From positions 646,988 to 710,987 of the forward strand of contig JBMNLS010000002.1 of NCBI GenBank assembly GCA_050952935.1: a DNA stretch of 64,000 nucleotides, given 5' to 3'. The translations under genes were made by a program, and so were the position numbers. The notes beneath the pieces are model-generated. The model saw only the letters and a list, made by a program, of their open reading frames with translations, was not told the DNA's origin and did no database searches. This stretch comes from Christensenellales bacterium (GTDB lineage Bacteria; Bacillota; Clostridia; Christensenellales; Aristaeellaceae). Positions within the stretch are counted from its first letter, which is position 1. Each line of letters opens with the position of its first letter. Shown here in pieces: positions 25,379 to 51,019 of this stretch.

Positions 25379-25674
25379 TTTTCAATGAAATCACAATACC
25401 GATTGTTGTTAATTGGTGTTCACTTGGACTGTATCTGAAAACCTGACAAACCTGACACATGTTCCGATTACTTTTAGCTTGACATCTATGTGCATTTGGC
25501 AAAGCAAATGAGAGAGGCACTCCTGCAATTTAGCATTTTTTCTGTAGAGGAATTTCTGATAATATGATATATAAGAGCCAAGATGAGTACAATGTGTTTC
25601 GTTGTATACTGTTGACACATATGAAAGATGAAGCAAATTAACTCAATACTATTTCGTTAAGGAGATTTTTGTTT

Positions 25675-26859: not shown

Positions 26860-26882
26860 TAGAGTTTAGAATATAGATTGGC

Positions 26883-26891
26883 TTCGGCTAT
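26883..26891. repeat. Target-site duplication (left copy) of the IS
   Basis: ttcggctat, identical to 28502-28510. Confidence 0.75.
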
Positions 26892-28716: not shown

Positions 28717-28762
28717 TGGTCGAGGTGACAGGATTTGAACCTGCGACCTTTTGGTCCCGAAC
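28717..28762 (-). repeat. attL-type direct repeat: displaced 3' 46 nt of tRNA-Pro
   Basis: 46/46 identity with 50943-50988. Confidence 0.9.
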
Positions 28763-29342
28763 GCAAACTGGCGTGTTTTATGAGGTTTTATATAGCTTAA
28801 TGATCGTCAATCTAGGCGAATAAAGAGCCATCACTTGCACGTCGGCATCAATTTGGAGTAATCAAGATGAACATGGAAGGAGGCTAAACGGAGGTCGCTA
28901 ATGAAACTCATGTCAACGCTCCGAAACGTCCTTGAACACCTTGGCATCTTGTGTTACTACGATGTGTCCAAGCCTTAGAAGGAACGTTTGTGCCGATGAA
29001 CGATCTTTATTAACTCACCAACTTATACAAAGATTGGGGACAGACCAATAGAACTTGAAAGTCTTGTTAAAATAGTCTGATATGGGGGAAGAGCCATATC
29101 GCATATCTGAACATGAGACACCTAAAAGCACTGGACGACAGCGAAACGGCCGTCAGCTAACAGTCACATCAATGGCCTCCCGAAATTTGCGCATAATTCT
29201 TGACAGTACCCTTTCTGGTCGATACATGCTGTGATCCTCCGAATAAAGTGCAAGGGTTTTGGATGATTTCAGGGGTTTTCCTTGCACCAATGATACCAGT
29301 AAACAGACGGAATGTCTTGATTTAGTTGGGGTTTCTTCTTGT

Positions 29343-30323
29343 TCAGGGGACACTATGTAGACTCATTCTTCGACATTCGGAAGGCATCATATTGAATTTA
29401 TTCCAAAATACTCGATAAAAATAACTGATATTTGAATACCCGACAAGTTGAGCTATTTCATCGACTGGCACATTTGAGTTGCTGATTAACATCAATGCTT
29501 TTTCCATACGGGCATTTTGTACAAGATTAATAAAACTCTTGCCGGTTTTTTTCTTTAGTAGTGTACTAAAATAGTTGGGATGATATCCGAATTCCATAGC
29601 AGTTTGGCGTAAAGTTACTCTTTCACAGTTACCTTCAATGTAAGAAAGAATCTTAGCAATTTCATGGTTTTGTTGGTGACTTATTTCCATAATTTCGCAG
29701 TTACGCGTTAATAAAGAAATTAACGTTACAAACAAACCATCTAGTACACGTTCATAAAAACTCTCCATTGCTGTATACTCCAGAAGGATAATGTTAATAA
29801 TATATTTTAAACTGATATTTTTTTTGGCTTTGACAATCATATACTGTCCACGATTATTTAGACTGAAGGGATTGATGAAAAATTTTAGCATGTCGGTGTT
29901 TTTGGGTATATGTGGGAGGTAGGATTTTAGACAAAGCTCCTTCTTTAGTGCGAAATAAATAATACAGGTTTCATCGGTGTTTTTGGGTAGGCCATGACGA
30001 GAAATGCAATGCTTGACACCTGGTTGAACTAGAAGCGTGTCTCCTTCGTTAAGTAATATTAATTGACCATCAATGTTTTCATAGACGTTACCTTTGTAAA
30101 AATACTGTAGGACAAAAAAATCTCTGATACGTGGTATTTCGGAAATAATGGATCCATCGTATGCCCACATCACAACATCAAGCATTTGGTGAGGAGGGAC
30201 CGGAGGAGGCATTTTAATACTAATAAAATGGTTTTTCTTTTCCATTTCATTTCTTGACACACGTTGAAGATATTCCGTGTCTTTTTTCAGCTGAATAATA
30301 GCAGAACTAATTTCATATTTCAT
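29343..30323 (-). CDS. AraC family transcriptional regulator (cupin sensor + HTH)
   Basis: C-terminal AraC HTH (...NISYFYRVFWNKFNMMPSECRR) and N-terminal cupin-like beta region. Confidence 0.85.
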   Translation of the reverse strand: MKYEISSAIIQLKKDTEYLQRVSRNEMEKKNHFISIKMPPPVPPHQMLDVVMWAYDGSIISEIPRIRDFFVLQYFYKGNVYENIDGQLILLNEGDTLLVQPGVKHCISRHGLPKNTDETCIIYFALKKELCLKSYLPHIPKNTDMLKFFINPFSLNNRGQYMIVKAKKNISLKYIINIILLEYTAMESFYERVLDGLFVTLISLLTRNCEIMEISHQQNHEIAKILSYIEGNCERVTLRQTAMEFGYHPNYFSTLLKKKTGKSFINLVQNARMEKALMLISNSNVPVDEIAQLVGYSNISYFYRVFWNKFNMMPSECRRMSLHSVP

Positions 30324-30441
30324 TTCTCACTCTTTTCAATGGACAAAATTGGACGTCAGCTTAGAATTCCAAAACAAGGTTGCTGGCAGCATGTTCAGAT
30401 GCATTTGGATTAGTTAATTCGTTTATATGTCTAGTCTAATG

Positions 30442-31944
30442 TTATAAGGTCACACTATTTTGATCATTATTTTGTATTTTGAGAAACCGATGGTAGGCAT
30501 CATCCCATTTTTTTGTTGAACTGGGCTCATATTCTGTAAGCACAAAAGAATTTCTTACAATTTCACGCATTTGAAAAATGTCAGAGATCTCACCTAAAGC
30601 TAAGCATTGCATTAAAAGATTTCCCACGCAGGCACCTTCAATAGGGCCGGTGGTGACAGGTCGACCTATACAATCTGCAATCATTTGGTTTAGCATTTCA
30701 TTTCGAATTCCGCCACCAACAATATAAAGACGGTCTATGTTTTTCCCACTAAATATTTCTAAACGCTCAATTGCCCAGCGATACTTTAAAGCGAGGCTTT
30801 CATAAACACATCGAGCGATTGCACCTTCGTTATCAGGAATTGGTTGATTAGTTCGTTTACAATAATTTTGGATTTGTAAAGGCATATTAACCACATTGAA
30901 GAAATCACTGTGGGAAGGATCAATAAATGATTGTAATGCTGGGGTATTCATCACGAGGTTTGTAATGTCAGTATAGGACAAATCTTTTCCATTTTTTTTC
31001 CATTCCTTTCTTGCCTCTTGAATTATCCATAATCCAGTTATGTTCACCAATGGACGGTAGCCACCTTGCACAGTCCCCTCGTTAGAAAAGTTTGAATCAT
31101 ACATATCGTTGGTGAAGATTGGGGCTTCGGTTTCAATGCCAAGAATTGACCATGTACCGGAAGAACAAAATGCATAATTATCATTTGTTTTTGCCGGAAT
31201 GGAGGCAACAGCTGAAGCAGTATCATGTGAACCAACCAATGCATAAGGGACACGATTAACATAAGCCTCTGCTGCAATAGTTGATAGCAGCTCACCACAT
31301 AATGTTCCGGAAGGGAGGATTGGCATTAAAATACGTTCATTTATGTTAAACATTGAGAGCATTTTTCGATCCCAATCGTTGAGTGTTGGATTATACATCG
31401 CAGTCGTAGTTGAAATTGTGTATTCGCTGTGCTTTTCACCAGTACAGAAAAAAGATAGTAGATCTGGAATCATCAGCATTGCATGAGCATTTTCGATTGC
31501 TGGATCTCCTTCACGTAAACGACGATGAAGTTGATAAAGTGTATTGATGGAATAACTTGAATTTCCTGAACGAAAAAAGATATCTCTACCTGACAAAATT
31601 TTGTGCGATTCCCTCATGTCCAAATCGGTTGTATGCCTAGCACATCGGGCATTAGAAAGAAGATGTCCATTTTTATCAATGAGACCGTAATCATTACCCC
31701 AACCATCTATGCCAAAACATGCAAGTTCACCTTTGTATAGTGCACTATACTTAGCGAAAGCCGTTTTGATATTCGAAAATATGTGCAGAATATCCCAGTA
31801 AATCATTTCTCCCATTTGAACATAGTTGTTTTCAAAACGATGAACTTCTTCAAGTTTAATTTTCTTACCATCAAAACATCCTAAGAATGCCCGTCCATTG
31901 CTTGAACCTAAATCAAATGCTATTAAATTTAATGGATTTTTCAT
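30442..31944 (-). CDS. FGGY-family carbohydrate kinase, rhamnulokinase-like
   Basis: LIAFDLGSSNGRAF N-terminal phosphate-1 motif, YIVGGGIRNEMLNQ C-terminal motif, 500 aa. Confidence 0.8.
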   Translation of the reverse strand: MKNPLNLIAFDLGSSNGRAFLGCFDGKKIKLEEVHRFENNYVQMGEMIYWDILHIFSNIKTAFAKYSALYKGELACFGIDGWGNDYGLIDKNGHLLSNARCARHTTDLDMRESHKILSGRDIFFRSGNSSYSINTLYQLHRRLREGDPAIENAHAMLMIPDLLSFFCTGEKHSEYTISTTTAMYNPTLNDWDRKMLSMFNINERILMPILPSGTLCGELLSTIAAEAYVNRVPYALVGSHDTASAVASIPAKTNDNYAFCSSGTWSILGIETEAPIFTNDMYDSNFSNEGTVQGGYRPLVNITGLWIIQEARKEWKKNGKDLSYTDITNLVMNTPALQSFIDPSHSDFFNVVNMPLQIQNYCKRTNQPIPDNEGAIARCVYESLALKYRWAIERLEIFSGKNIDRLYIVGGGIRNEMLNQMIADCIGRPVTTGPIEGACVGNLLMQCLALGEISDIFQMREIVRNSFVLTEYEPSSTKKWDDAYHRFLKIQNNDQNSVTL

Positions 31945-32163
31945 AATAGATTAAATCTCCTTTCTTCAATTCATATAATCTCTTTAGCGATAGAATAGCA
32001 TTTTTCTAGAATTTTGCAAGTGAAACTTATTTTTGGACAGTAAAATGATTAATTTTCGTCAATGAAAATCTACTTACTATATTTTAATATTTATTATGTA
32101 AACATAGAGGAAAAACATTCGTCAACTATCCTGGCTATGCTATAAAATGTAATAAGGGAGGGT

Positions 32164-33228
32164 ATGGAAATAGTGTTATATTCGAGAAGACTTGAGAGAG
32201 AAACACCAACCAGGTTCTTTGTTAACAATCCAACTCCATCTGAAGCAAAAGCTGCTTTGGATATTGGAAATGTTATTGGAGTTGTCACAAATGGAAATTA
32301 TTTAAAGCGAATGTTGACTATTCCAGAAACCAAAGACTACACGATTGCTTTTATAGATAAGCTTATTCGGGATGGAATAGATGATGATGAACTAATCGTT
32401 GCATTAGCTACACAGAATGCTGTAAATGCGTGTGCAAAGATATGGCTTCCCATATTTGAATGCACCAATGGAGAAAAAGGATGGGTAGCAATTCAGGGGA
32501 ATCCAAACCATGACACAGATTATGATTTTATTGTTTCAGAAGCAAATCGTTTCTATACTGTGAGTCCCAATGTTCGTGTCAAATTTCCTGCGACAAAAGA
32601 GGCAATAAAAGCACTCGAGAGCATGACGGCATTAGGAAAAGCGACATTAGCGACTTGTGGCTTTTCGGTACAATACACTATAGAAGCCATTGAAGCTTAT
32701 CAACGAGGATGTAAACTATCAAAGAGACAAGTACCGAGGCTATATGTAACATTATTAGCTGGTCATATAGACGAATATCTTGCAAAGTATGTTAAAGCCA
32801 ATAATATTTCTATCTCCCCAGGTGTTCTATCAAGGGCGGGTGTTGAAATTGCAAAGACGGTCTATAAGCTCTGGTATGATAGGTACCGAAACACGAATAG
32901 CCGAATAGTGAGTAGCTGTAGAGAATTGTATCATTTTACGGAAATGGTTCCAGGAGATATGTCAGTAACTGTGAACCACAATTTTATCAAGGAACTCAAC
33001 AATCTTAATCCCAATATTGACAATCGAATCTCCATGAGAGAGCCTGATTCTGTGTTCGAAGAACTTAAAGATACATTTCCTGTATTTGATTTTTCAACCT
33101 CTGAGAAAAGCACAAAATATGGTTGCTGGTCAATGTTACCAACGGCTCTGTACTTTCGTAATTATGTACGGTCGGGATGGGACTTTTCGACATCAATAGT
33201 TCGAGAAAGACGTTTGATGTTTCAGTAA
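32164..33228 (+). CDS. Transaldolase-family protein (long form)
   Basis: FFVNNPTPSEA...VTNGNY and VRVKFPATKEAIKALE (candidate Schiff-base Lys context). Confidence 0.65.
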   Translation: MEIVLYSRRLERETPTRFFVNNPTPSEAKAALDIGNVIGVVTNGNYLKRMLTIPETKDYTIAFIDKLIRDGIDDDELIVALATQNAVNACAKIWLPIFECTNGEKGWVAIQGNPNHDTDYDFIVSEANRFYTVSPNVRVKFPATKEAIKALESMTALGKATLATCGFSVQYTIEAIEAYQRGCKLSKRQVPRLYVTLLAGHIDEYLAKYVKANNISISPGVLSRAGVEIAKTVYKLWYDRYRNTNSRIVSSCRELYHFTEMVPGDMSVTVNHNFIKELNNLNPNIDNRISMREPDSVFEELKDTFPVFDFSTSEKSTKYGCWSMLPTALYFRNYVRSGWDFSTSIVRERRLMFQ

Positions 33229-33301
33229 ATTCAAAAAAGAAAACTACATCCATAGAAACAAATAAAATGGATGAGTTAATAAAAGGAGGAGGACAAACCA
33301 A

Positions 33302-34249
33302 ATGAAAAAGAACATTTTTCGTAACTTTCCCTTTCTGGTAATTCTGGTACTAATGTTGACAGTCACCGTAGCTTTTGCCGAAGGAAGAACAATCGGAACC
33401 GTTATTTTAGATGGGACTAATCCACACTGCACTCTCTTCGAAAAAGGATTTCGTAGTATAGTGGAAGATAAATATGGCGATAAAGCTGTTGTTTTGGACG
33501 CTCTTGGCGATCCCGAAACTCTCATCAATAGCATTAGTGATTTAATGTCACAACAAGTTGATGGTATTGTGCTAGAAGCTTGTGATGCTGAAGCGCCAAT
33601 TGCAATCCTTAAAGAAGTCAAAAACTTAATGGGGATCCCTGTAGCGGCAGCAGATATGTATTTAGCGACCACTGAAGAAGAAGGCTTGGTAATCAGCCAA
33701 ACAGTTTCACAGAACTATGAAGCAGGAGTCGCGGTTGCTGAAGACCTTCTTAAAAGAGTTGGCACCAAGGATACTAATGTTTGTATTTTGGAAATGAAGC
33801 AAAACAGCTCTGGTATGATGCGTATTCAGGGTTTCCTTGATACAATAAAAGGTCATGATAATATAATTATTATCGAACAATCACAACCCAGCGAAGATTC
33901 TGTTGAAGCAAAACTAGCACTCGCTGAAATCTGGGTGCAGAAACACGAGAACATTGATGCAGTATTCTGTTATCATGATGTTGCTTCGCTTACCGTTGTC
34001 CAGGCTTTAAAAGCAGCTGGAAGGCTTGACGGTGTGCTGATTTATGGTGTTGACGGATCTCCGGATGCCATGCTTGCTATTAAGAAAGGAGAGATGACTG
34101 GTACTAGTAAGCAACAGCCTGATCAGATGGCTATACATTCCGCAGAGGATGTGTACACAGTACTTAATGGCGGTACTATCGAACATGAATGGGAGGTTTA
34201 CATACCTACTGTGTTTGTCGATGCAAGCAATGTAGATCAATATCTGTAA
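33302..34249 (+). CDS. Sugar ABC transporter substrate-binding protein (RbsB/LacI-type fold)
   Basis: Signal peptide plus periplasmic-binding-protein pattern; operon with a ribose-type ATPase and permease. Confidence 0.75.
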   Translation: MKKNIFRNFPFLVILVLMLTVTVAFAEGRTIGTVILDGTNPHCTLFEKGFRSIVEDKYGDKAVVLDALGDPETLINSISDLMSQQVDGIVLEACDAEAPIAILKEVKNLMGIPVAAADMYLATTEEEGLVISQTVSQNYEAGVAVAEDLLKRVGTKDTNVCILEMKQNSSGMMRIQGFLDTIKGHDNIIIIEQSQPSEDSVEAKLALAEIWVQKHENIDAVFCYHDVASLTVVQALKAAGRLDGVLIYGVDGSPDAMLAIKKGEMTGTSKQQPDQMAIHSAEDVYTVLNGGTIEHEWEVYIPTVFVDASNVDQYL

Positions 34250-34357
34250 AAAATGATTTGTTGAGTATTTACTTAATGTATAAATCAGAGTAAGACAAGA
34301 CGATTTTTGCTGGGCGAGAAGCAAGTTGTGCTTATCGCCTGGCAATTGGTAGGAATT

Positions 34358-35872
34358 ATGAATGATGCGATTTTATTGATGAATTCCATTGTAAAGAAGT
34401 TTCCTGGCGTGAACGCTTTACGAAATGTGGATTTTGAGTTACGAAAGGGTGAAGTCCATGCACTATTAGGCGAGAATGGCGCAGGAAAATCAACACTCAT
34501 GAAATGTTTAAGCGGTATACACACTATAGATAGTGGCAGCATTTCACTTGATGGAAAAAAAATCGAAATCAAATCTGTGCAAGATGCGATACGAAATAAT
34601 ATCAGTATTATTCATCAAGAACTTGTATTATGTGAAGAATTAACCATAGCGGAAAACATATTTATGGGCCGAGAACCAATAGGGAAATGTCGATTAACAA
34701 ACAAGAGAAAGCTATATAATGAAGCCCAAAAAATAATTGATCGAATTGATAGTAGTTTGAATGTTTATCGAAAAGTAAATTCGTTGTCAACTGCGCAAAA
34801 ACAAATGGTAGAAATTGCGAAAGCTTTAAGCATGAATGTAAGGATTCTGATCATGGATGAACCGACTGCAATGCTTTCACAACGTGAAGTTAATGCTCTA
34901 TTTTTGCTAATTCGTTCTCTGAGAGATGAAGGGATATCAATTGTTTATATTTCTCATAGAATGGAAGAAATATTTCACATATCTGATCGTATTACTGTAT
35001 TAAGAGATGGTATGTTGATTAAAACTTTGGAAACATCAAAAACTAACAATCAAGAATTAATAGACTTGATGGTCGGTCGAAAGCTTGAAGAATATTATGT
35101 TCGCACAGACCACAATATTGGCGGAACAATATTTGAGGCAAAAAACATTAATAGGTATGATGGGCGTGTGGTAAATGCTAACTTTCATCTAAGAAAGGGT
35201 GAAGTATTAGGCTTTGCCGGTCTAGTTGGATCGGGAAGAACCGAACTGATGCGTGCAATATTTGGTATTGATAGATTTGTTTCTGGAGAGATCTTGATCA
35301 ATGATAAACCAGTCGTTATTAGAACTGTTGAAGACGCAATAAACCTTGGTATTGGAATGGTTCCTGAGGACAGAAAGCTAGAGGGGCTTTTTCTACATCG
35401 TGAGGTTATGTTCAATATCACTTTAGGTGTTTTAGGTAGATTTATATCACTTTTCCGGATAGATCATCACAAAGAAGATATGATCGCTGATCAATATATT
35501 GACATGCTATCCATTAAGGTAAGTTCCAGAAATCAAGTTGTAGAAACTTTATCTGGAGGGAATCAACAGAAAGTGGTGCTTTCAAAATGGCTTGTTATGT
35601 CTCCCAATATATTAATTTTAGATGAACCAACTCGTGGTATCGATGTTGGTGCAAAAGCAGAGGTTTATGCAATTATTGATGATCTCGCTAAAAAAGGTAT
35701 TAGTATTATCTTGGTCTCTTCAGAAATGATGGAACTCATTAATATATGTGACCGCATTTATGTAATGTGTAATGGACATATTAGTACTTGTCTTCATCGC
35801 AATGAGATGAAGCAGGAAACAATTCTAAAGCATGCGCTAGGAGTGAATGAGTATGCAAGATGTGAAAAATAA
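34358..35872 (+). CDS. Sugar ABC transporter ATP-binding protein, duplicated ABC domains (RbsA-like)
   Basis: GENGAGKST Walker A, two LSGG-type signatures (LSTAQKQ, LSGGNQQK). Start chosen at MNDAILLM. Confidence 0.9.
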   Translation: MNDAILLMNSIVKKFPGVNALRNVDFELRKGEVHALLGENGAGKSTLMKCLSGIHTIDSGSISLDGKKIEIKSVQDAIRNNISIIHQELVLCEELTIAENIFMGREPIGKCRLTNKRKLYNEAQKIIDRIDSSLNVYRKVNSLSTAQKQMVEIAKALSMNVRILIMDEPTAMLSQREVNALFLLIRSLRDEGISIVYISHRMEEIFHISDRITVLRDGMLIKTLETSKTNNQELIDLMVGRKLEEYYVRTDHNIGGTIFEAKNINRYDGRVVNANFHLRKGEVLGFAGLVGSGRTELMRAIFGIDRFVSGEILINDKPVVIRTVEDAINLGIGMVPEDRKLEGLFLHREVMFNITLGVLGRFISLFRIDHHKEDMIADQYIDMLSIKVSSRNQVVETLSGGNQQKVVLSKWLVMSPNILILDEPTRGIDVGAKAEVYAIIDDLAKKGISIILVSSEMMELINICDRIYVMCNGHISTCLHRNEMKQETILKHALGVNEYARCEK

Positions 35873-36857
35873 AAGTGAATTTGATACATTCAAAACACGA
35901 TTTATTACCGCTTTAAAGACCAATTCAAGCGTTTTTATTGCTTTCGCTATTGTTTTTATTCTTGCTTCGTCTATTTCACCTAAGTTTCTTACTTTCACAA
36001 ATCAGATGATTGTTTTAAGAATGATTTCAGCGACAACTTTGACTGCATTTGGAATGTCGTTCGTAGTGCTTACAGGAGGTATTGATCTATCTGTTGGTTC
36101 ATATATGTCACTTGCAGGTTGTTTGACAACCATTTTGATTTCGTGGTATGAGTTTAATACTATTATTGCAATATTTCTTGCTGTTTGTGTTGGGTTAGTT
36201 TTTGGTGCACTAAATGGTCTAATAATCACCAAAATGCATATGCCTCCGTTTATCGTGACTTTAGCAACGATGAATATAATGCGTGGTATTTCCTATACAA
36301 TCACAGGAGGTAAACCAGTTTCAATAAAATCAGATCCGCTTTTTGAAAGAGTAGGTGCAGGTTTCATTGGGAAGGTTCCCATAGCAGTCGTTTATATAAT
36401 TGTCGTTTTTTGTGTTCTGTGGATGCTATTAAATCGATCTCGTTTTGGACGACATGTGTACGCTGTTGGAGGTAATATTAAAGCGGCCTCATACTCTGGA
36501 ATCAATACGAATAGAATAATTTTTTATTCGTATATTCTAACTGGAATTCTCGCTGCTTTCGGAGGAGTCATTCTTGTTTCACGCTTAAATTCCGGTCAAC
36601 CAACAATTGGTGAAGGAGCTGAATTGGATGCTATTGCTGCTTGCATAGTTGGTGGAATGAGTCTATCAGGTGGTGTCGGCACATTGACAGGCACATTTAT
36701 AGGTGCCATTCTAATGGGAGTCATTAGCAACATGCTAAACTTGGTAGGGGTTAATTCTTTTGTTCAACTAATTATCAAGGGAATAATAATTGTTTTCTCT
36801 GTTTACATTAATACACTTCGCAGTTATGCTACCAGGACAAGAAAAATTGATAATTAA
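35853..36857 (+). CDS. Sugar ABC transporter permease (RbsC-like)
   Basis: Polytopic; GGIDLSVG motif; overlaps the ATPase stop. Confidence 0.85.
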   Translation: MQDVKNKSEFDTFKTRFITALKTNSSVFIAFAIVFILASSISPKFLTFTNQMIVLRMISATTLTAFGMSFVVLTGGIDLSVGSYMSLAGCLTTILISWYEFNTIIAIFLAVCVGLVFGALNGLIITKMHMPPFIVTLATMNIMRGISYTITGGKPVSIKSDPLFERVGAGFIGKVPIAVVYIIVVFCVLWMLLNRSRFGRHVYAVGGNIKAASYSGINTNRIIFYSYILTGILAAFGGVILVSRLNSGQPTIGEGAELDAIAACIVGGMSLSGGVGTLTGTFIGAILMGVISNMLNLVGVNSFVQLIIKGIIIVFSVYINTLRSYATRTRKIDN

Positions 36858-36912
36858 GATTTATAATATGCTACAATAAGTAAGAAGATATATAATAAAG
36901 GAGGAACTGGTA

Positions 36913-37380
36913 ATGAAAGAAAACATATCTCATATAGGACATTATGGTATCACAGTAAGCAACTTAGAAAGAACACGAGATTTTTATGAAAATGTGCTTG
37001 GATTTGAATATGAAGGAAAACTTACTATGGACGATGGGTCGGATATTCTAGACATTCCTGCTTATGAAGAGGTAACTGGTGTGCCAGGTGTTAAGTTTAG
37101 AATCATGAACATGAAGGGCTATGGAATTAATCTTGAGTTTTTGCAGTACATATATCCCGAAGAGATTGAGATTGAAATACAGCCATATATTCGTGGCACA
37201 TCGCATTTAGCCCTTGTGGTCAAGGATCCAGAAAAAGCTTATGCAGAATTAAAGAATAAAGGTGTATGGGTTTCTTCTGATCGCGCTGCTTGCATTGATA
37301 GAGGAACACATAAAGGAGTTTATGCCAATTACTTTAGAGATCCTGATGGATTTATCCTTGAATTTGTCAAACCGAACTAA
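36913..37380 (+). CDS. VOC/glyoxalase-family protein
   Basis: ISHIGHYGITVSNLERTRDFYENVLGF and DPDGFILEF motifs. Confidence 0.8.
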   Translation: MKENISHIGHYGITVSNLERTRDFYENVLGFEYEGKLTMDDGSDILDIPAYEEVTGVPGVKFRIMNMKGYGINLEFLQYIYPEEIEIEIQPYIRGTSHLALVVKDPEKAYAELKNKGVWVSSDRAACIDRGTHKGVYANYFRDPDGFILEFVKPN

Positions 37381-37462: not shown

Positions 37463-37502
37463 GGTACTGTCAAGAATTTTACGCATAATTCTTGACAGTA
37501 CC
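37463..37502. repeat. Perfect 16-bp inverted repeat; one arm recurs at 29190-29210
   Basis: ggtactgtcaagaatt-ttacgcat-aattcttgacagtacc; followed by a tandem gacagtacc duplication (37494-37511). Confidence 0.8.
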
Positions 37503-37635: not shown

Positions 37636-38772
37636 TTATTCTTCCACAGGGATTGTTATCAATGTGTTTGGAAAATTAGTTAGTTTCTCGATTTCATTTT
37701 CTCTAATAAGAACCATATCCTCATATCTTACACCAATATTATTCTTGGGATCTCTAAGAAAAACATCAATGCAGAATACCATATTTTCTTTCAAAATATA
37801 CTCTGAACCCATTTCAATCCATGGATTTTCACATTCAACTAATCCAACGCTATGACAAGGTCCATAAACAAGCATATGCAAATTCCCCTGTTTTTCTATT
37901 TCATGCCGGTGAGCTTCTGCAACAAGTCTAGCGGGTTTACCATAGTTATCATTAATTGCGTTCTCGACTATTGTTTTGGCCTTGATACAACTATCAATAA
38001 TATGTTTTTGTGCTTGTGTTGGTTCACCCATAATTACTGCTCGACCAATTGCAGAAGCATAGCCCTCATAGCGAGCACCAAGCTGAATCTGTACAATAGA
38101 ACCTTTTCGAATTATCATTTTCGATGATGACGAAATTGCATATTCGGTATCCGTATCACAAGTTATCCACGCAGGGAATGCCTCACCCTCTGCGCCTTCC
38201 ATATACATTTTTTCAAGTGCAAATCCCTTCAACTCTTCGCAGGTCATTCCTACCTTAATATTCTTGAGCACATGCTCAAAAGCTGCTCTAGAAATGCGAG
38301 CAGCTTCCTTGAGACAACTAATTTCTGCGATAGATTTTTCAGCTCTTAAACTATCTACAATATCATCTGCTGGAATGATTTCAGCATGTGGTGCAACCAC
38401 ACCTAGTGATGACCTTATTTCGTCTGAAACCTCACGTGGAATAAACACCCAACCGACAATGCCTAATTTCTTAATTGGTTTTACTTGATTATATTGATTT
38501 AGAAGTTGAGAAAAACTATGAAAAGTATTATCTTCGTATTTGGGAGCAGAGGACTCACGAAAAGCGATCATTCTTTTTACAGACCTAAGCTTACTATGAG
38601 CCAATGCTCTTTCATAGCTTTCTGGTCCAACTAGAAGCGAAGCAGATTCTTGACAAGGTATCGCAATGCCTGCGGTCTCAAACACTGGTTGGAAATCCGA
38701 GAAATATCTTACATACTGAGGTTCAGCATTGTGGCCAAAAGCAATTAATACATCAATCTCATTAATTGCCAT
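37636..38772 (-). CDS. M24-fold (creatinase/prolidase-like) hydrolase, atypical metal-ligand positions
   Basis: Creatinase_N-like N-domain plus a pita-bread C-domain (GPCHSVGLVECENP). The expected Asp ligands appear replaced (IVQIQLGARYEGYASAIGRAV). Confidence 0.65.
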   Translation of the reverse strand: MAINEIDVLIAFGHNAEPQYVRYFSDFQPVFETAGIAIPCQESASLLVGPESYERALAHSKLRSVKRMIAFRESSAPKYEDNTFHSFSQLLNQYNQVKPIKKLGIVGWVFIPREVSDEIRSSLGVVAPHAEIIPADDIVDSLRAEKSIAEISCLKEAARISRAAFEHVLKNIKVGMTCEELKGFALEKMYMEGAEGEAFPAWITCDTDTEYAISSSSKMIIRKGSIVQIQLGARYEGYASAIGRAVIMGEPTQAQKHIIDSCIKAKTIVENAINDNYGKPARLVAEAHRHEIEKQGNLHMLVYGPCHSVGLVECENPWIEMGSEYILKENMVFCIDVFLRDPKNNIGVRYEDMVLIRENEIEKLTNFPNTLITIPVEE

Positions 38773-39674
38773 CCGTTAACAGCATTTTCTTCATTCAAAC
38801 TACAAATCTTTGCATACATCTCTTCTGTTGTTTTCATTCTGTTTTGAAAATTTGTGCTTTCTCGAACCTGATGATCTGCTTCAGCGAGTCCAATCAACTT
38901 TGCGGTGTATGGATGAACAGGAAAGTGAACAATATCGTTAGTTTTTCCAGATTCCACAATACGTCCGTCGTTTAGCACATATATACGATCACACAAATGA
39001 TATAGTAAACCTATATCTCTTGACGCAATTAGAGTTGAGAGTTTATTTTCGCTAATTAACCCCTTGATTAAATTAAAAACTTGGATCTGAATTGTTACAT
39101 CTAGCCCTCCCGTTGGCTCATCTGCTAAGAGCAAGGAAGGTTCACATATTAGAGCAATTGTAATTAAAACTCTTTGAGCCATACCACCGCTAAGCTCGTT
39201 AGGAAAACTATTGTATCGTTTTTCCGGATCTGGAATACCAACAAGTCCTAATAGTTCTATAACACGAGAATGTGCCTGATCATTGGTTACTCGGAAATGT
39301 GACATATAGATTCTTTTGATTTGATTACCAATCGTATCAATTGGGTCGAGTCGCCAATGGGGATTTGGTTTTATGCTCGCAACTTGTCTTCCTAAATACT
39401 CTTTTCTTAGAGTTTCTAAATCTATCTCTAAAAGATTAATTCCGTTAAGAATTACTTCACCTTTCGAAATCATTAAGGGTTCGCTCAATGAATTTATTAT
39501 TGCACTCAACAAAACGGACTTACCAGATCCAGAACCTCCAATTATACCAACACATTCAGTCTCATCAATTGTGATGTTTATATTATCTAGCAGTGGTTTG
39601 TCGAGATTACTGTCTGTTCCAGCCAGCATTACAGTTAAGCCTTTCACCTCTAATATAAGCTTTTGATGCTCCAT
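38745..39674 (-). CDS. Opp/Dpp-type ABC transporter ATP-binding protein (the only ATPase in the locus)
   Basis: GGSGSGKS Walker A, LSGGMAQR signature, LLLADEPT Walker B, HPYT C-terminal motif. Confidence 0.85.
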   Translation of the reverse strand: MEHQKLILEVKGLTVMLAGTDSNLDKPLLDNINITIDETECVGIIGGSGSGKSVLLSAIINSLSEPLMISKGEVILNGINLLEIDLETLRKEYLGRQVASIKPNPHWRLDPIDTIGNQIKRIYMSHFRVTNDQAHSRVIELLGLVGIPDPEKRYNSFPNELSGGMAQRVLITIALICEPSLLLADEPTGGLDVTIQIQVFNLIKGLISENKLSTLIASRDIGLLYHLCDRIYVLNDGRIVESGKTNDIVHFPVHPYTAKLIGLAEADHQVRESTNFQNRMKTTEEMYAKICSLNEENAVNGWQLMRLMY

Positions 39675-39682
39675 TTATATCA

Positions 39683-41574: not shown

Positions 41575-41623
41575 ATTGTTCCTCTTAGTTATTAGCTGTA
41601 AAATTAGGATCTTTGAGGAGGTA

Positions 41624-41662: not shown

Positions 41663-41683
41663 CTACTGCATACAATTACTGTT

Positions 41684-44129: not shown

Positions 44130-44145
44130 ACTTGCGCTCCTTCAA

Positions 44146-47107: not shown

Positions 47108-48292
47108 CTATATTGCCAATGCTTCATCAAGTTTGTCAGCAGCTTCCGTATCTCGGGATTTCAGAGCATGGGCATAGACGTTTAGAGTTGTTGAGGTATC
47201 AGCATGACCTAGTCGCTGGGAAACGGTTCTAATGTCCACTCCTTCAGCAATCATCATTGTCGCGTTGTAATGACGCAGTGAATGTAAAGAAACCTTAGGC
47301 AATCCATTTGTAATGAGAAAATTCTTGAACCATCCTGATATTGTATCCGGGTACATGGGCGATCCATTCCAAGCAGTAAAGAGTCTGTCAGAATCAATCC
47401 ATTGATCACCAAGCTCTGATCTGATCTTATTTTGCCAACAGCGATATTCTTGAAGCATTTCACATGCATTTCTGCTCAGCGTAAACTTTCGCCTACCTGA
47501 TATGGTCTTCGGATCCTTCGTTATGATTGTTTTGTTCCCAACATATTGCGAAGTCCTGACAATTTTCATTTGGCGAGTCTCAAAATCTATATCTTTCCAT
47601 TCCAGCCCCATTAATTCTCCACGTCGCAATCCGGTATATAGGAGTAACATTATCATCGTACGATACTGAATTGGGGAGTCGTTCAGAAGAACTATCATTT
47701 GCCTGATCTGCGATTCATTAAGTATTTTGGTTTCCTTATGTTCCAATTTTGGTGGATCAGCCTGATTGGCGACATTATTTTCAACTAGCTGCCATTTTAC
47801 AGCATAGGACAGAATATTAGAAATGAGTCGATGGTGCTCCAAGATTGTTTTGGAAGACAAGGTAGCACCTTTTATTGGTTTACCTCGAAAATCATGTTTG
47901 ATTCCTTCTTCCTTCAGATTGCTATAGAAGCTGTTCAGATGTAGCGGTTTGATGTTTTTTAGCTTCTTGTGACCAATTGCCTTATTAATTCTTTTTAGGA
48001 GATATTCATAGCTGGTTACAGTTTTCGGAGCTAACTTCTGCTTTGCGTATTCATTCATCCATTTTTGCGACAACATTTCAAAGCTCATATTGCCATCATA
48101 ATAATTACCACTTTTTACCTCCTGTTCAAACAGGACCTTTTGTCGCTCCAGTTCTTTTTCTATTTGTCTTTGTGTCATTCCCTCAGGTGGTGTCCACGTC
48201 ATAGATTTATCAATCCGCTGTGCTTTACTGTTTAACCCACAAAATACCCTGATTTGATAACTGCCGTTCTTACGTTTTCTTACAGATGCCAT
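47108..48292 (-). CDS. int: Tyrosine recombinase / site-specific integrase
   Basis: N-terminal SAM-like domain (RKRKNGSYQIRVF...), catalytic-domain motifs TGLRRGEL, HSLRHYNAT and LGHADTSTTLNVYAH (R-H-R-Y set). Confidence 0.9.
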   Translation of the reverse strand: MASVRKRKNGSYQIRVFCGLNSKAQRIDKSMTWTPPEGMTQRQIEKELERQKVLFEQEVKSGNYYDGNMSFEMLSQKWMNEYAKQKLAPKTVTSYEYLLKRINKAIGHKKLKNIKPLHLNSFYSNLKEEGIKHDFRGKPIKGATLSSKTILEHHRLISNILSYAVKWQLVENNVANQADPPKLEHKETKILNESQIRQMIVLLNDSPIQYRTMIMLLLYTGLRRGELMGLEWKDIDFETRQMKIVRTSQYVGNKTIITKDPKTISGRRKFTLSRNACEMLQEYRCWQNKIRSELGDQWIDSDRLFTAWNGSPMYPDTISGWFKNFLITNGLPKVSLHSLRHYNATMMIAEGVDIRTVSQRLGHADTSTTLNVYAHALKSRDTEAADKLDEALAI

Positions 48293-48520
48293 TGTGTCCT
48301 CCTTAACCATTTGTGTAGTAAAGTTTTGATAGTTAACTCCCCCTAACTAATTTATTGACTTCTTTTTGCTTCTTTAGTCAATTTAGAAGAGTTTGATAGT
48401 TTTTTATTGCTTTTCATGATGTTTTCCTTCTCCATCAATATAGAAGAGGGCTTGCCAGGACTCCAAGCAAGCCCCCTAACTATATGAATTTCCATTTGTA
48501 AAGAAATTCCTCCTAATCCA

Positions 48521-49051: not shown

Positions 49052-49297
49052 TTAATTCGCGTTTTCAATGGGTGCAAGCTTTATCACAAAGTTATTGAAC
49101 TCTTCAAGCTCATATTGGTTTCCAACAATTATCTGGTTTGGTGAGCGATAATTGGCACCAACCCATTTTGTTGCTACTGCTTTACCTTCGACACTCTTAT
49201 CTTCATAGGTGAAGTGAATGACGCAATCGGTAACCCTTTGCCCTGTTTTCTTGTTCAGCCTAGAAGTAAGACGTTTACCAATAATTTGAATTTTCAT
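49052..49297 (-). CDS. Small protein of unknown function, paralog of 48742-49035
   Basis: MKIQIIGKRLTSRLNKKTGQRVTDCVIHFTYEDKSVEGKAVATKW; TAATG overlap with the rep stop. Confidence 0.55.
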   Translation of the reverse strand: MKIQIIGKRLTSRLNKKTGQRVTDCVIHFTYEDKSVEGKAVATKWVGANYRSPNQIIVGNQYELEEFNNFVIKLAPIENAN

Positions 49298-50268
49298 TAT
49301 TTTTTCTCCTTATAATTTGTATTATCGTCAGAGATTCCAACCACAGATGGCAGAATTTCACTTGATTTTGTTCGATTGCTGTTGAACTGTTGGTATAGCA
49401 CAGCATTGAGTTCCTGAATGTTTCCCAGCTCATCTTCAGTCACAATTTGCTTTGTAGAAGTGTAGACTTCCCTGGAATTACCTACCAGCTTCATAGCCTC
49501 ACCATAGGGCATTTTCTTTGCCTTGGGCCTGATTATGCCTTTTGAGCAGGAATAGAATCTGAAGTTGGGTGGGTAGAATTTGAACCGAGCACCCTTGACT
49601 ATTGCCTTCCATCCATTAGGATTTTGTTCTGGACATTCTGCATTTTCGAAGGCATCATAGTCAGTGAACATTGCAGAAAAGTAAGCACCGATATTATCTG
49701 AAGATGGCATCTCGCTTACATGGATCAATCCTAATCCCCATAGATCACGCAAATGATCGTAGTCAACATACAGTAACTTACCATTCATCAGCTTTACCAG
49801 GAGATGGATGTGCCAGCGGCCAGCATTTTGTGGTTCAAGGATCCTGATATACTCACAGCCTGGATAGTGATATGTAAATCTTGACCAGAATCGTGAGAAA
49901 TCCTTAGCTACTTTGGTGTAGTCTTGTTCGTTATAGTTGTAAGTTAGTGTGATGTGCAGTTCTGATTGATGGTCACCAATAAAATTTGCATTGATAACTC
50001 TACGAAGGTCAGAGAATGTCTTTCGTAGTCCTTGATGGTTATTAAGCCTTTTTGAAGACTTTTTGTATGTGATAATCTCACCGGTTTTAAGATTGACACA
50101 CCTATCCTTATCCAGACGCCTGTAATTTGAGATAACAGGAGATGGAGGTATTTTAACTGTAATAATCTCGTTGATATTACCTGATGAGATAACCTTACAC
50201 ATATGGTTACTAGAAACAGTAAAAGTTTTACCCTTTAGGTTCTTAATAGTTACATTCTTCTTTTCCAT
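49297..50268 (-). CDS. HUH-type rolling-circle replication initiator-like protein
   Basis: Motif I-like LHITLTY, HUH motif WHIHLLV, Tyr-containing NIGAYFSAMFTDY; AAGGAG RBS before ATG 50268. Confidence 0.6.
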   Translation of the reverse strand: MEKKNVTIKNLKGKTFTVSSNHMCKVISSGNINEIITVKIPPSPVISNYRRLDKDRCVNLKTGEIITYKKSSKRLNNHQGLRKTFSDLRRVINANFIGDHQSELHITLTYNYNEQDYTKVAKDFSRFWSRFTYHYPGCEYIRILEPQNAGRWHIHLLVKLMNGKLLYVDYDHLRDLWGLGLIHVSEMPSSDNIGAYFSAMFTDYDAFENAECPEQNPNGWKAIVKGARFKFYPPNFRFYSCSKGIIRPKAKKMPYGEAMKLVGNSREVYTSTKQIVTEDELGNIQELNAVLYQQFNSNRTKSSEILPSVVGISDDNTNYKEKK

Positions 50269-50852
50269 TAAACTCACTCCTTAGAAATTTCTGTTATTAA
50301 AGTTCTCTCCGTTCATATTGGATGATGCCGAAATAATCTTTCGAAAATTAAAGCGGCAATAATCAAGAATAATAAGAAGGAATAACTTTTTTGATGGTTA
50401 TGTCTCATCCTGATTTTGTATGCAGGTTTGTTGAGACTCGATACAGTTTCGGCGATGCTTCACATAGTGAGACGGGCTTTTTAAATTTCCTTCTGTTCAA
50501 CCCTCTCTTTAGTGACTTGCTGTTTCTAAACTTCCATGTTACTACCTCCTAATGTTTTGTCTTTCAGCTGCTAGACACTAGTAATAACGATTTTGCTCTC
50601 AAAAAACAGCCGTTTTTTTAATGTTTTTTGGTAATAAATTTTTTAGGCATAGGAAATATGTTGATATGACTGGATATTTGATAGTTGTTGAATATTAGAT
50701 ATGATAAAAAATTCGGTCGTTGTAAACGTAGAAAACCTAGTGGCAAGTTGATTCTTTAAAAAATCAAGATTGCTTCTTCTGACCAATTGGTAATGGCTGA
50801 ATATGTCCTAGAACATTGTATTATCATCAATTTTCACTCATTTTCACCTAAT

Positions 50853-50942: not shown

Positions 50943-50988
50943 TGGTCGAGGTGACAGGATTTGAACCTGCGACCTTTTGGTCCCGAAC
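50943..50988 (-). repeat. attR-type direct repeat (inside the intact tRNA-Pro)
   Basis: 46/46 identity with 28717-28762. Confidence 0.9.
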
Positions 50989-51019
50989 CAAACGCGCTAC
51001 CAAACTGCGCTACACCTCG
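50943..51019 (-). tRNA. tRNA-Pro (anticodon CGG)
   Basis: Hand-folded cloverleaf: acceptor CGAGGTG/CACCTCG, D stem GCGC/GCGC, anticodon stem TTTGG/CCAAA with loop TTCGGGA, T arm GCAGG-TTCAAAT-CCTGT, encoded CCA. Confidence 0.9.

Follow-up and report, generated by a model that had tools for sequence, protein, structure and literature searches.

A mobile module that probably encodes an undescribed sugar breakdown route in gut Clostridia

Which sugar could be broken down by a gene cluster that encodes a kinase, an importer and a transaldolase-family protein, with no classical isomerase, dehydrogenase or class II aldolase between positions 29343 and 37380 of the window (the whole 64,000-nucleotide stretch of Christensenellales DNA analysed here)? 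A first-pass annotation had described the gene set and its layout correctly: all seven open reading frames (7/7) are intact, their families are confirmed, and the genes for an AraC-type regulator and an FGGY kinase diverge from those for a TAL/FSA-fold protein, a ribose-type ABC importer and a VOC protein. It had proposed the direct uptake of a ketose or ketose-like compound, followed by phosphorylation and a transaldolase- or F6P-aldolase-type split, encoded on a mobile island.

The module and its distribution

The features of the locus and its surroundings are, in window coordinates:

28717..28762, no strand: attL, a 46-nt direct repeat equal to the tRNA-Pro 3' end, left border of the element; 100% identical copy at 50943-50988
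29182..29210, no strand: 29-nt direct repeat, copy 1 (family D2, 93% identity, spacing 8292)
29343..30323, minus: AraC-family regulator, cupin-type ligand domain and HTH_18, 326 aa (family models)
30442..31944, minus: FGGY ketose kinase, RhaB/FucK clade, 500 aa (family models, structure matches, tree)
31945..32163, no strand: divergent control region between the kinase and TAL-like genes (sequence)
32164..33228, plus: TAL/FSA-fold lysine enzyme, 'NN' clade, 354 aa
33302..34249, plus: RbsB/AlsB-like CUT2 solute-binding protein (SBP)
34307..35872, plus: CUT2 ABC ATPase, tandem ABC_tran
35847..36857, plus: RbsC-like permease, single
36913..37380, plus: VOC (glyoxalase-fold) protein, module-specific, 155 aa
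37463..37502, no strand: terminator-like hairpin with a 16-bp stem, right border of the module; it includes the second copy of the 29-nt repeat, at 37474-37502
47108..48310, minus: tyrosine integrase of the island
49297..50277: Rep protein of the island
50943..51019, minus: tRNA-Pro (CGG), the target of integration; attR consists of its first 46 nt in window coordinates

The sugar module, bracketed by the two copies of the 29-nt repeat, rides on a 22.2-kb integrative element of 37% GC located at tRNA-Pro. The proposal of a mobile island holds, given the 46-nt att repeats, the tyrosine integrase, the Rep protein and the deviant GC (36.6% in the module versus 54.8% in the genome), and the module is self-contained and horizontally transferable. 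Elsewhere, the host encodes RhaA, a RhaS-type SBP, a class II aldolase and a kinase of its own, i.e., a canonical rhamnose cluster; the island module therefore does not serve to complete the rhamnose pathway. No canonical transaldolase was found in the host.

The regulator matches the HTH_18 and AraC_binding domain models and has orthologues of 48-64% identity in four other loci (L007, L011, L032 and L035). The motif TTCGTCAA is repeated in the divergent control region, where the copies could serve as putative AraC half-sites. The SBP is a Peripla_BP_4 protein that has a signal peptide and no lipobox cysteine, and scores 96 bits on the RbsB model (cut-off 337). It keeps only 5 of the 10 positions that contact ribose in the E. 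coli ribose-binding protein (RBP), a comparison that yielded no clear ligand. Family alignments of the ABC ATPase begin near residue 18-23, so its true start may lie downstream of the TTG.

The kinase and TAL-like genes are adjacent in seven non-redundant loci that differ in gene order and regulator: the window; L032-34; L035/36, from Hadza gut; L011, from Christensenella intestinihominis; L002/3/6, from Lachnospiraceae; L029-31; and L007/L070. These loci span Christensenellaceae, Lachnospiraceae and gut metagenomes, and in all seven the TAL-like protein is of the H201 type and its partner is a RhaB-clade kinase. Cluster numbers agree as well, with about 14 for the TAL-like protein and about 13-15 for the kinase (at least 54% identity). 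The association goes far beyond chance, and the idea of a conserved functional pair is supported.

Variant loci are informative about the substrate. In L029-31, the TAL-like gene is found with an SDR gene, the kinase gene and two Zn-ADH genes and the VOC gene is absent, as it is from L070, which has a Gfo/Idh/MocA oxidoreductase and, beside its TAL module, a separate trio of FGGY, 100-aa and DeoC-like genes. L001, L008 and L009 consist of a PRD regulator, a Gat-type PTS and the TAL-like gene only; these Gat-type PTS loci belong to a sister TAL-like clade. Two variants also hold an XylB-like second FGGY kinase and a class II ketose-bisphosphate-aldolase-family gene, and a TRAP-linked clade has an AP_endonuc_2 protein at a position comparable to that of VOC. 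Ketose-making enzymes, or a PTS with its direct phosphorylation, thus take the place of VOC or of the ABC importer and kinase, and the TAL-like gene is kept. Altogether, the variant loci support the view that the TAL-like enzyme acts on a ketose phosphate, which is the part of the first interpretation that stands along with the functional pair and the mobile, self-contained module.

The kinase, the VOC protein and the TAL-fold protein

The best model for the kinase is the rhamnulokinase model TIGR02627 (406 bits, below the cut-off of 528). Matched to the structures of E. coli RhaB (2CGJ) and S. pneumoniae FucK (4C23), it reaches 280 bits with each. A FucI/FucU-linked kinase is among its relatives at 51-53% identity. 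In the tree, the TAL-linked kinases form a monophyletic group that is sister to the host's own RhaA-linked kinase; they constitute their own clade next to the true rhamnulo- and fuculokinases. Characterised kinases of the RhaB/FucK clade phosphorylate C1, which adjoins the keto group, while transaldolase and FSA use omega-phosphate substrates. Membership of this clade thus implies that a ketose 1-phosphate would result, and not the omega-phosphate of transaldolase or FSA.

The VOC protein forms only 6 clusters in 5.8 billion proteins, and all the gene contexts that were read lie inside the sugar module. Its residues H10, E75, H98 and E150 are invariant and occupy the expected positions of VOC metal ligands, and the closest fold is Ni-glyoxalase I. 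Orthologues are mostly 76-84% identical (about 60% in two), most of them above the 54-69% of the TAL-like protein and kinase in kinase-linked loci. Being module-specific, equipped with putative metal ligands and placed where sister loci have dehydrogenases, VOC stands out as the candidate for the isomerase or epimerase that seemed to be missing, and the direct uptake of a ketose that had been suggested is not required. To our knowledge, no VOC-fold sugar isomerase has been described.

The TAL-like protein matches the Pfam TAL_FSA family with 70 bits, but all NCBIfam transaldolase and FSA models score far under their cut-offs. Its predicted structure (pLDDT 93) has the transaldolase fold, i.e., the same TIM barrel as TalB and FSA, with a TM of 0.8 to long transaldolases and just 14-18% identity to solved structures; with 354 residues, it is long compared with the 220-aa FSA. 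The lysine context VKFPATKE that had been noticed is present, within VRVKFPATKEA. It places the Schiff-base lysine, K140, in the same strand motif as in TalB and FSA, (V/I)K(F/I)PAT, and this lysine is kept in the subfamily. K140, Q111 and T164 are invariant among 108 family members, the other key residues being N21/N22, L162, L198, H201 and R253. The protein shares a Thr (T156 in TalB, T109 in FSA) and an Asn (N35 and N28, respectively) with both enzymes, and the Gln at the Glu96/Gln59 position is that of FSA. In contrast, Asp17/Asp6 is replaced by Asn, Phe178/Tyr131 by Leu and TalB R181 by His, so that one of the two phosphate-binding arginines is missing; R253 aligns by motif with TalB R228, the distal arginine of the phosphate site. 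Since the proton shuttle of FSA, Tyr131 (PMC13259622), is Leu and the Glu96 of TalB is Gln, neither known mechanism has its acid-base residue here. With N21 at the Asp position and L198 at the Tyr/Phe position, no general base is identified, and the chemistry may not be retro-aldol. The protein belongs to a small subfamily for which neither the label "transaldolase" nor "F6P aldolase" can simply be assumed, and the same holds for the type of split proposed in the first-pass annotation.

A proposed route and its alternatives

No published pathway matching the module was found, in agreement with the earlier remark that this is not a textbook route. The reading that we favour, with a probability of about 0.45, is that of a self-contained mobile catabolic module for a monosaccharide, which proceeds by import, isomerisation or epimerisation by VOC, C1 phosphorylation and lysine-dependent cleavage. 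An AraC-type activator would sense the sugar and the ribose/allose-type ABC importer would take it up. The VOC metalloenzyme would then turn it into a ketose accepted by the kinase, through aldose-ketose isomerisation or epimerisation with a metal-bound enediolate, and the RhaB/FucK-clade kinase would phosphorylate this ketose, most likely on C1. The TAL-fold enzyme would form a Schiff base via K140 and break the carbon chain, yielding an aldehyde handled by housekeeping enzymes and a triose unit, which would be DHAP in the case of a C1 phosphate. VOC and the TAL-fold protein would thereby do, as non-orthologous replacements, the work of the isomerase and class II aldolase in the rhamnose and fucose routes. 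Candidate substrates are a 6-deoxy-hexose or a rare hexose yielding a (3R)-ketose, such as D-allose/D-psicose or L-galactose/L-tagatose. Several points speak against this reading. The TAL-fold protein has no identified general base, no VOC-fold sugar isomerase is known to us, the PTS-only loci contain no isomerase, and the SBP gives no clear ligand. The donor-C1 pocket, small in TalB and FSA, is predicted here to be lined by L162 and T196 and would not obviously accommodate a 1-phosphate, and the retained R253 would suit an omega-phosphate instead.

That last residue fits the original proposal, in which a ketose is imported as such and phosphorylated on its distal primary hydroxyl, and the TAL-fold protein is a true transaldolase or FSA-type aldolase that moves or releases a dihydroxyacetone/hydroxyacetone unit and leaves an aldose phosphate, VOC being an accessory for an aldehyde or dicarbonyl by-product. 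The TAL_FSA fold and lysine motif are present, Q111, T164, N43 and L162 mimic Q59, T109, N28 and L107 of FSA (PMC13259622), the PTS and TAL-like gene alone would make a complete minimal operon, the host is devoid of a canonical transaldolase, and one relative is located between split transketolase genes. We nonetheless consider this proposal doubtful in view of the 1-kinase clade, the loss of both known acid-base residues, the Asn at Asp17/Asp6 and the His at TalB R181; it also leaves a strictly module-specific and highly conserved VOC protein without a role. Such a role could lie downstream, on the aldehyde product, since the PTS-only loci have no isomerase. In that case, the kinase would act on the compound as imported, and VOC would isomerise or detoxify the aldehyde that the TAL-like enzyme sets free, for example by turning glyceraldehyde into dihydroxyacetone, lactaldehyde into acetol or a 2-oxoaldehyde into a hydroxy-acid. 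The glyoxalase I fold and the AP_endonuc_2 protein of the TRAP-linked clade, from a family that includes hydroxypyruvate isomerase, are consistent with this scheme. It appears unlikely, however, as the enzymes found instead of VOC in sister loci are dehydrogenases of the kind that convert polyols to ketoses, glyoxalase I models score far under their cut-offs (30 versus 120 bits), and a detoxifier is not expected among the most conserved proteins of the module.

The remaining alternatives assign the module to known substrates. An ordinary 6-deoxy-hexose, L-rhamnose or L-fucose, would be converted to DHAP and L-lactaldehyde by alternative enzymes of the textbook pathway, with VOC standing for RhaA/FucI, the kinase being RhaB/FucK and the TAL-like protein standing for RhaD/FucA. 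RhaA- and FucI-linked kinases share 50-53% identity with the island kinase, whose Christensenella orthologue is named 'rhamnulokinase' by NCBI, the rhamnulokinase model gives 406 bits for the island kinase and 434 bits for the host RhaA-linked kinase, also under the cut-off, and rha operons typically have AraC-family regulators. Yet the SBP is not RhaS-type (21 bits, cut-off 342, versus 403 bits for the host rhamnose SBP), the complete canonical cluster is already in the host, and the TAL-linked kinases form a separate clade. The polyol-dehydrogenase variants and, less directly, the sister-clade Gat-type PTS loci are unsuited to rhamnose or fucose, and the XylB-like kinase and class II ketose-bisphosphate-aldolase-family gene of two variants point to hexitol or ketohexose metabolism, which makes this substrate improbable. 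An Lsr-like system for autoinducer-2 (AI-2) or another 1-deoxy-dicarbonyl sugar, whose dione would be imported and then handled by the kinase, VOC and lysine enzyme in the roles of LsrK, LsrG and LsrF, seems very improbable. The protein types are the same (CUT2 ABC importer, FGGY kinase, small isomerase and lysine-dependent cleaving enzyme). In addition, VOC enzymes are chelators of vicinal oxygens, L162 and T196 on the C1 side of the pocket could suit a methyl ketone, and the absence of a base for the C4-OH might matter less in diketone cleavage. However, the kinase scores only 56 bits on the LsrK model (cut-off 528), versus 406 on the rhamnulokinase model, the SBP and the permease match Rbs models better than Lsr models, the permease is encoded by one BPD_transp_2 gene only, LsrB is absent from the PDB matches of the SBP at E<=1e-8, AI-2 does not suit the polyol-dehydrogenase and PTS variants, and the trio with a DeoC-like gene in L070 is separate from the TAL module.

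Comparison with known systems

The sulfo-TAL pathway for sulfoquinovose (BmSF-TAL) resembles the module in having a dedicated TAL-family enzyme in a peripheral sugar operon of gut Firmicutes. That pathway comprises a short canonical transaldolase, an SQ isomerase and an SLA reductase/dehydrogenase, and no kinase, whereas the module has a kinase and a long TAL-like protein, whose family profile BmSF-TAL matches only at E = 0.03. The lsr operon (LsrACDB, LsrK, LsrG and LsrF) has the same protein types, namely a CUT2 ABC importer, an FGGY kinase, a small protein of isomerase type and a lysine-dependent cleaving enzyme, but none of the module proteins is orthologous to an lsr protein. Where LsrG has the ABM fold and LsrF a DeoC-like fold, the module has VOC and TAL folds, and there is one permease gene versus two. 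The ABC-dependent D-tagatose/hexitol clusters, TagABCDE of S. meliloti and the tag cluster of E. coli Nissle, likewise combine compactly a CUT2 ABC importer, a sugar kinase and one downstream enzyme for a rare ketohexose (PMC9720028), and two TAL-module variants also have Zn-ADHs and the class II ketose-bisphosphate-aldolase-family gene. These clusters differ in that they lead to tagatose 6-phosphate, which undergoes either epimerisation or, in the form of the bisphosphate, cleavage, and in that they lack TAL-fold and VOC enzymes.

The L-rhamnose and L-fucose pathways (RhaA-RhaB-RhaD and FucI-FucK-FucA) share with the module the kinase clade, an AraC-family regulator and the operon logic of transporter, regulator, kinase and C-C cleaving enzyme. 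The module differs from them in having VOC and a TAL-fold lysine enzyme instead of the RhaA/FucI isomerase and class II aldolase and, with respect to L-rhamnose, an RbsB/AlsB-like SBP. The cassette thus joins a rhamnulokinase-like kinase to two rare uncharacterised enzymes, and probably encodes an undescribed route of sugar breakdown in gut Clostridia.

Gene content of the cassette and of its integrative element

Seven intact ORFs, and no more, lie within 29343-37380, and their families, as judged by Pfam and NCBIfam, are those assigned in the first-pass annotation. They are arranged in two divergent halves:

29343-30323, minus strand: AraC-family regulator
30442-31944, minus strand: FGGY kinase
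219-bp gap between the divergent halves, separating the kinase and TAL_FSA genes
32164-33228, plus strand: TAL_FSA-family (TAL-like) protein
33302-34249, plus strand: Peripla_BP_4 solute-binding protein (SBP)
34307-35872, plus strand: tandem-ABC ATPase
35847-36857, plus strand: single BPD_transp_2 permease
36913-37380, plus strand: Glyoxalase/VOC protein, 155 aa

No isomerase or dehydrogenase is encoded among the seven ORFs of 29343-37380, as had been noted earlier, and a class II aldolase is likewise absent from them. The ATPase ORF is listed from a TTG codon; since its family alignments all begin at residue 18-23, the true start is probably a later codon. A scan for promoters and terminators gave counts no higher than background. 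The labels of the NCBIfam curated models match those given before, yet every one scores under its cut-off.

Scores of module proteins against NCBIfam curated models, in bits
Kinase, rhamnulokinase RhaB model TIGR02627: 406, cut-off 528
Kinase, LsrK model: 56, cut-off 528
TAL-like, transaldolase PRK03343: 75, cut-off 367
TAL-like, tal_mycobact: 58, cut-off 234
TAL-like, FSA model: 29, cut-off 246
SBP, RbsB model: 96, cut-off 337
SBP, AlsB model: 74, cut-off 335
VOC, glyoxalase I TIGR00068: 30, cut-off 120
VOC, SMU1112c/YaeR model: 40, cut-off 140

The proposal that the cassette rides on a mobile island is upheld. The island is bounded by a perfect 46-nt direct repeat (28717-28762 and 50943-50988), which corresponds to the 3′ end of tRNA-Pro(CGG), and it contains the following genes:

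47108-48310: tyrosine integrase
49297-50277: Rep protein

GC content is 36.6% in the module and 37.8% in the island, against 54.8% in the genome. Repeats at a tRNA 3′ end, a tyrosine integrase and a deviant base composition, the hallmarks of a tRNA-targeting integrative element, are thus found together. A 29-nt direct repeat (93% identical) flanks the sugar module at 29182-29210 and 37474-37502, the latter copy forming half of a 16-bp-stem hairpin that separates the VOC gene from the next operon; this repeat could be a cassette junction or a shared terminator/operator. The island also carries a second cargo operon (37636-45505) encoding an XRE-cupin regulator, two Amidohydro_2 proteins, an Opp-type importer and an M24 peptidase-fold protein. 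Beyond attL (25669-28345) lie an orphan HsdR-N-like gene and a DDE transposase.

Active-site features of the TAL-like protein, the VOC protein and the SBP

The TAL-like protein belongs to the TAL_FSA superfamily by its TIM-barrel fold, by its Pfam score (PF00923, 70.4 bits versus a cut-off of 27) and by a Schiff-base lysine, K140, on strand beta-4, which lies in the sequence VRVKFPATKEA, the lysine context already pointed out. Its AF2 model has a pLDDT of 93, and the best PDB folds are the long transaldolases 3r5e and 3clm (TM 0.78-0.80; 14-18% identity). A profile search of 1.84 billion representatives returned 99 clusters at E<1e-30 and 628 at E<1e-10, numbers which indicate that the subfamily is small and distinct. 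Residues were mapped through HMMER alignments to solved transaldolases and through an alignment of 108 full-length clusters at 50% identity, roughly 70 of which make up the 'NN' branch (N21/N22 in the TAL-like protein).

Active-site positions of TalB and FSA and their equivalents in the TAL-like protein
TalB K132, FSA K85: K140; invariant (108/108), aligned with the IK(I/V)PAT lysine of 3r5e and 3clm
TalB E96, FSA Q59: Q111; invariant, aligned with the Glu of SIEVDP/SLEVSP
TalB T156, FSA T109: T164; retained
TalB N35, FSA N28: N43; retained
TalB D17, FSA D6: N21; Asn in 72/108, Asp in 36/108 ('DS' branch)
TalB N154, FSA L107: L162
TalB S176, FSA A129: T196
TalB F178, FSA Y131: L198; Leu, Ile or Met in most of the family
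TalB R181: H201; His in every kinase-linked member, Pro in PTS- and TRAP-linked members
TalB R228: R253; nearly invariant, equated by motif (GGCR versus ASFR) from sequence only

The roles of several TalB residues are established, R181, S226 and R228 making up its phosphate site, and entry titles show that the PDB contains TalB mutants at D17, N35, E96, T156, S176, F178 and R181. The position of L107 in FSA is one that we take to be equivalent from the FSA engineering literature. In FSA, Lys85 and Tyr131 form the catalytic dyad, Asp6 and Asn28 set donor recognition, and the catalytic water is held by Gln59, Thr109 and Tyr131 (PMC13259622). In the TAL-like protein, both E96 and D17, which are catalytic in TalB-type enzymes (EC 2.2.1.2), are replaced, by Q111 and N21 respectively, and the equivalog scores fall under cut-off; the Gln of FSA is present (Q111) and the Tyr131 position is occupied by L198. 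The 36 family members with Asp at the N21 position also retain Arg at the TalB R181 position. The transaldolase or F6P-aldolase type proposed at first is not to be taken for granted, as the TalB Glu, the FSA Tyr and the Asp common to both are missing and the corresponding models score under cut-off. From its predicted active site, the TAL-like protein is no ordinary transaldolase or FSA. The proton shuttle may have been relocated, in which case candidate residues are Y46, which never varies within the close clade, and Y171, found in that clade only.

The host genome contains a second NN-type TAL-like gene (G000 C2:332549-333550; L025 9501-10583), 28% identical, whose reading frame runs into the end of a DRL/SAF-domain oxidoreductase gene, with a GntR/FCD regulator gene ahead of it. 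Among the ORFs scanned, none beside it encodes a kinase or a transporter, which suggests that its function is probably different. PF00923 matches only these two NN-type genes in the host assembly (92% complete), and the host would seem to lack a canonical transaldolase.

The VOC protein is rarer in the database than the TAL-like protein, with just six clusters in the whole database, and each context read is the module itself. It matches Pfam Glyoxalase at 57 bits and its model is of moderate confidence (pLDDT 73), the closest folds being Ni-glyoxalase I (1f9z) and YaeR-like proteins of the generic glyoxalase family. The paired beta-alpha-beta-beta-beta modules and a predicted His/Glu/His/Glu metal site place it in the VOC superfamily; H10, E75, H98 and E150, the ligand positions predicted from the motif, are invariant in 8 orthologues. 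Equivalog scores under cut-off set it apart from glyoxalase I (lactoylglutathione lyase). Of the ten positions that contact ribose in the E. coli RBP structure, the SBP keeps five (N13, D89, R141, D215 and Q235) and differs at four (F15, F16, R90 and N190); the tenth, F164, coincides with a gap in the alignment. Neither the RbsB score nor these contacts agree with an RbsABC system, and the SBP is best described as a putative sugar binder for which ribose is not demonstrable as the ligand.

Neighbourhood conservation and variant loci

A word-indexed search of 5.8 billion proteins returned only 32 relatives of the TAL-like protein. Reading their contigs, the neighbourhood check proposed earlier for the pair, revealed seven non-redundant loci in which a TAL-like orthologue (54-69% identity) adjoins a kinase orthologue (55-72%); the gene combination is conserved and not fortuitous. 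The gene content of the module recurs in three sets of loci with the AraC gene placed differently, including a Hadza gut contig (L032-34, L035/36), and the module is also found in Hadza and other gut metagenomes. Christensenella intestinihominis AF73-05CM02 (L011), an isolate cultured from the human gut, carries the module too, and Lachnospiraceae contigs (L002/3/6) have the pair with a DeoR regulator and an altered gene order. Among VOC-type loci, identity reaches 81-83% for the SBP, 58-69% for the TAL-like protein and 55-68% for the kinase; for the VOC protein, most orthologues fall at 76-84% and two, P0187 and Christensenella L011, at about 60%. Two independent VOC-type loci (L002 2172-3665; L011 164-1663) have an extra divergent tandem-ABC ATPase gene just upstream, 32-33% identical to the module ATPase and missing from the window.

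Other loci vary the set of partners. In L029-31, two Zn-ADHs, an unrelated ABC system (SBP just 24% identical to that of the module), the TAL-like gene, an SDR and the kinase follow one another, and VOC is absent. It is also absent from L007/L070. There, genes for a class II ketose-bisphosphate-aldolase-family protein, an FGGY kinase of XylB-like type and a Gfo/Idh/MocA oxidoreductase come after the TAL-like gene, and the gene for the RhaB-like kinase is divergent. Beside the TAL module of L070 (11792-18151) lie an ABC importer, an FGGY kinase, a 100-aa protein and a DeoC-like protein, whose outline recalls LsrK/LsrG/LsrF. A sister TAL-like clade (about 50% identity, Pro at 201) combines a PRD/EIIA regulator and a Gat-type PTS (EIIA, EIIB, EIIC-GAT) with the TAL-like gene, and a third clade (44%) combines a GntR regulator, an AP_endonuc_2 (xylose-isomerase-like TIM barrel) protein and a TRAP transporter:

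L001 356-6119, L008 986-6457, L009 490-5891: minimal PTS/TAL-like operons, no further enzyme
L004 8351-14502, L012 8852-15003: TRAP-linked loci of the third clade

The lack of a visible kinase in L004 and L012 points to an acid sugar as substrate. Another member of the family, more remote in sequence (L026 7236-13903, genome G054), lies between two pairs of split transketolase genes, near an Asp/Glu-racemase-like gene, a cupin and a GH43/32/130-like gene. Altogether, the partners of the NN branch differ from locus to locus and comprise kinases, PTS, TRAP transporters, transketolases and DRL-type oxidoreductases.

The constant element across the variants is the TAL-fold gene: a PTS, whose product is a sugar already phosphorylated, can stand in for the ABC importer plus kinase, and oxidoreductases of the polyol-to-ketose type can stand in for VOC. 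These substitutions lend support to the kinase-to-transaldolase sequence at the core of the first-pass annotation, and their simplest reading is that a ketose is made, phosphorylated and passed to the TAL-like enzyme. Because the oxidoreductases take its place, the VOC protein appears to be the best candidate for the 'missing' isomerase/epimerase.

Proposed route, alternatives and relation to known systems

The cassette is likely, with a probability of roughly three in four, to be a catabolic module complete in itself, with a ketose as the compound on which first the kinase and then the TAL-fold enzyme act. A more detailed route is plausible, although a little short of an even chance: a sugar would be imported by the ABC system, isomerised or epimerised by VOC and phosphorylated as a ketose at C1 by the kinase, and the ketose phosphate would be cleaved to DHAP and an aldehyde through a K140 Schiff base. 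The main uncertainties concern VOC, which may act before the kinase or after cleavage, and the position of the phosphate. L162 and T196 line the pocket that holds the C1-OH in TalB/FSA, and the distal-site R253 is retained; these features favour an omega-phosphate, whereas C1 is favoured by the clade of the kinase. The substrate may be a 6-deoxy-hexose or a rare hexose giving a (3R)-ketose (D-allose/D-psicose, L-galactose/L-tagatose), the latter fitting the hexitol-type accessory genes of the variant loci.

The kinase brings the rhamnose and fucose pathways into consideration. It scores about 280 bits to both E. coli RhaB (2CGJ), an enzyme of established regiochemistry, and S. pneumoniae FucK (4C23). 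Its database matches run from 72% down to about 54% identity over some 13-15 clusters, beyond which lie hundreds of Clostridia 'rhamnulokinases' at 51-53%, one of which, P0204, is located in a FucI/FucU fucose cluster. A tree that adds 30 kinases drawn from 400 genomes of the host's phylum shows the TAL-linked kinases, seven in all, to be monophyletic; their sister (50% identity) is the host's own kinase, which scores only 434 on TIGR02627. The latter belongs to a cluster on contig 1 with RhaA (607 bits), a RhaS-type SBP (403 bits), a class II aldolase and an SDR. With this rhamnose cluster full and its own kinase included, the island kinase fills no gap there, and its completing the canonical route of the host is ruled out; the refuting case named at the outset, in which core enzymes supply the missing steps for a standard substrate, does not apply in any simple way. 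RhaB-type linkage to RhaA/RhaD is also missing, as neither RhaA nor a class II aldolase occurs in the module or any orthologous locus. The island kinase is placed by its sequence as a close yet separate offshoot of 1-kinases for (3R)-ketoses, and it is improbable that the module merely provides alternative enzymes for rhamnose or fucose. At locus L069 (5207-12595), a fucose cluster (FucI, FucU, LacI) includes a RhaB-like kinase, after which come an SDR and a PHP-domain protein of 392 aa with no class II aldolase in view, which may be another non-orthologous replacement.

Three further routes were considered. The sulfo-TAL pathway is rejected: it lacks a kinase, and its BmSF-TAL, a canonical Tal of the short type, is matched only at E = 0.03. 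D-apiose routes, prompted by RbsB-type SBPs and split transketolases, have no tie to the module; the DRL-type oxidoreductase adjoins the host TAL-like paralogue, not the module locus. As for the Lsr (AI-2) system, the kinase falls far below the LsrK cut-off, the module has no ABM- or DeoC-fold gene, and no LsrB model is found among the SBP matches at E<=0.001.

Returning to the phosphorylative route with TAL-fold cleavage, it is possible, though unlikely when taken as a whole, that two new activities act jointly, a TAL-fold lysine ketose-1-phosphate aldolase/lyase and a VOC-fold sugar isomerase/epimerase, forming a new rare- or deoxy-sugar pathway of gut Clostridia spread from lineage to lineage as an integrative-element cassette. 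If so, the TAL-like enzyme would work without the Asp/Glu/Tyr acid-base residues of every characterised TAL/FSA enzyme, the NN branch would add a new functional class to the class I aldolases, and VOC would be the first sugar isomerase/epimerase on the glyoxalase fold. The TAL_FSA family is a biocatalysis workhorse, and to our knowledge the physiological role of FSA itself is not established; a natural branch that retains the lysine while Asn, Gln and Leu occupy the three positions for acid-base catalysis and donor recognition would reveal other C-C chemistry and donors. Once the sugar is named, a further nutrient niche could be assigned to Christensenellaceae and Lachnospiraceae, both of interest with regard to host health; rare sugars used as sweeteners are among the candidates, as are deoxy-sugars from plants or bacteria. 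If both activities are as proposed, enzymologists and researchers on the gut microbiome would clearly find them of interest, and seven genes self-sufficient enough to move on an integrative element make a compact pathway-discovery target. A full-text literature search, with subscription journals mostly outside its range, found no description of the kinase/TAL-like pair, of the NN-type clade or of the TAL-like and VOC enzymes as a pair, an absence that is no proof.

Compared with ordinary sugar operons, the module has the same architecture, a kinase of a known clade and an ordinary CUT2 ABC system, while two of its three enzymes come from rare families without a characterised member. Compared with the classical routes, the enzyme pair of the module replaces the isomerase and the class II aldolase. 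The novelty would lie in this replacing pair, neither enzyme of which has a characterised relative.
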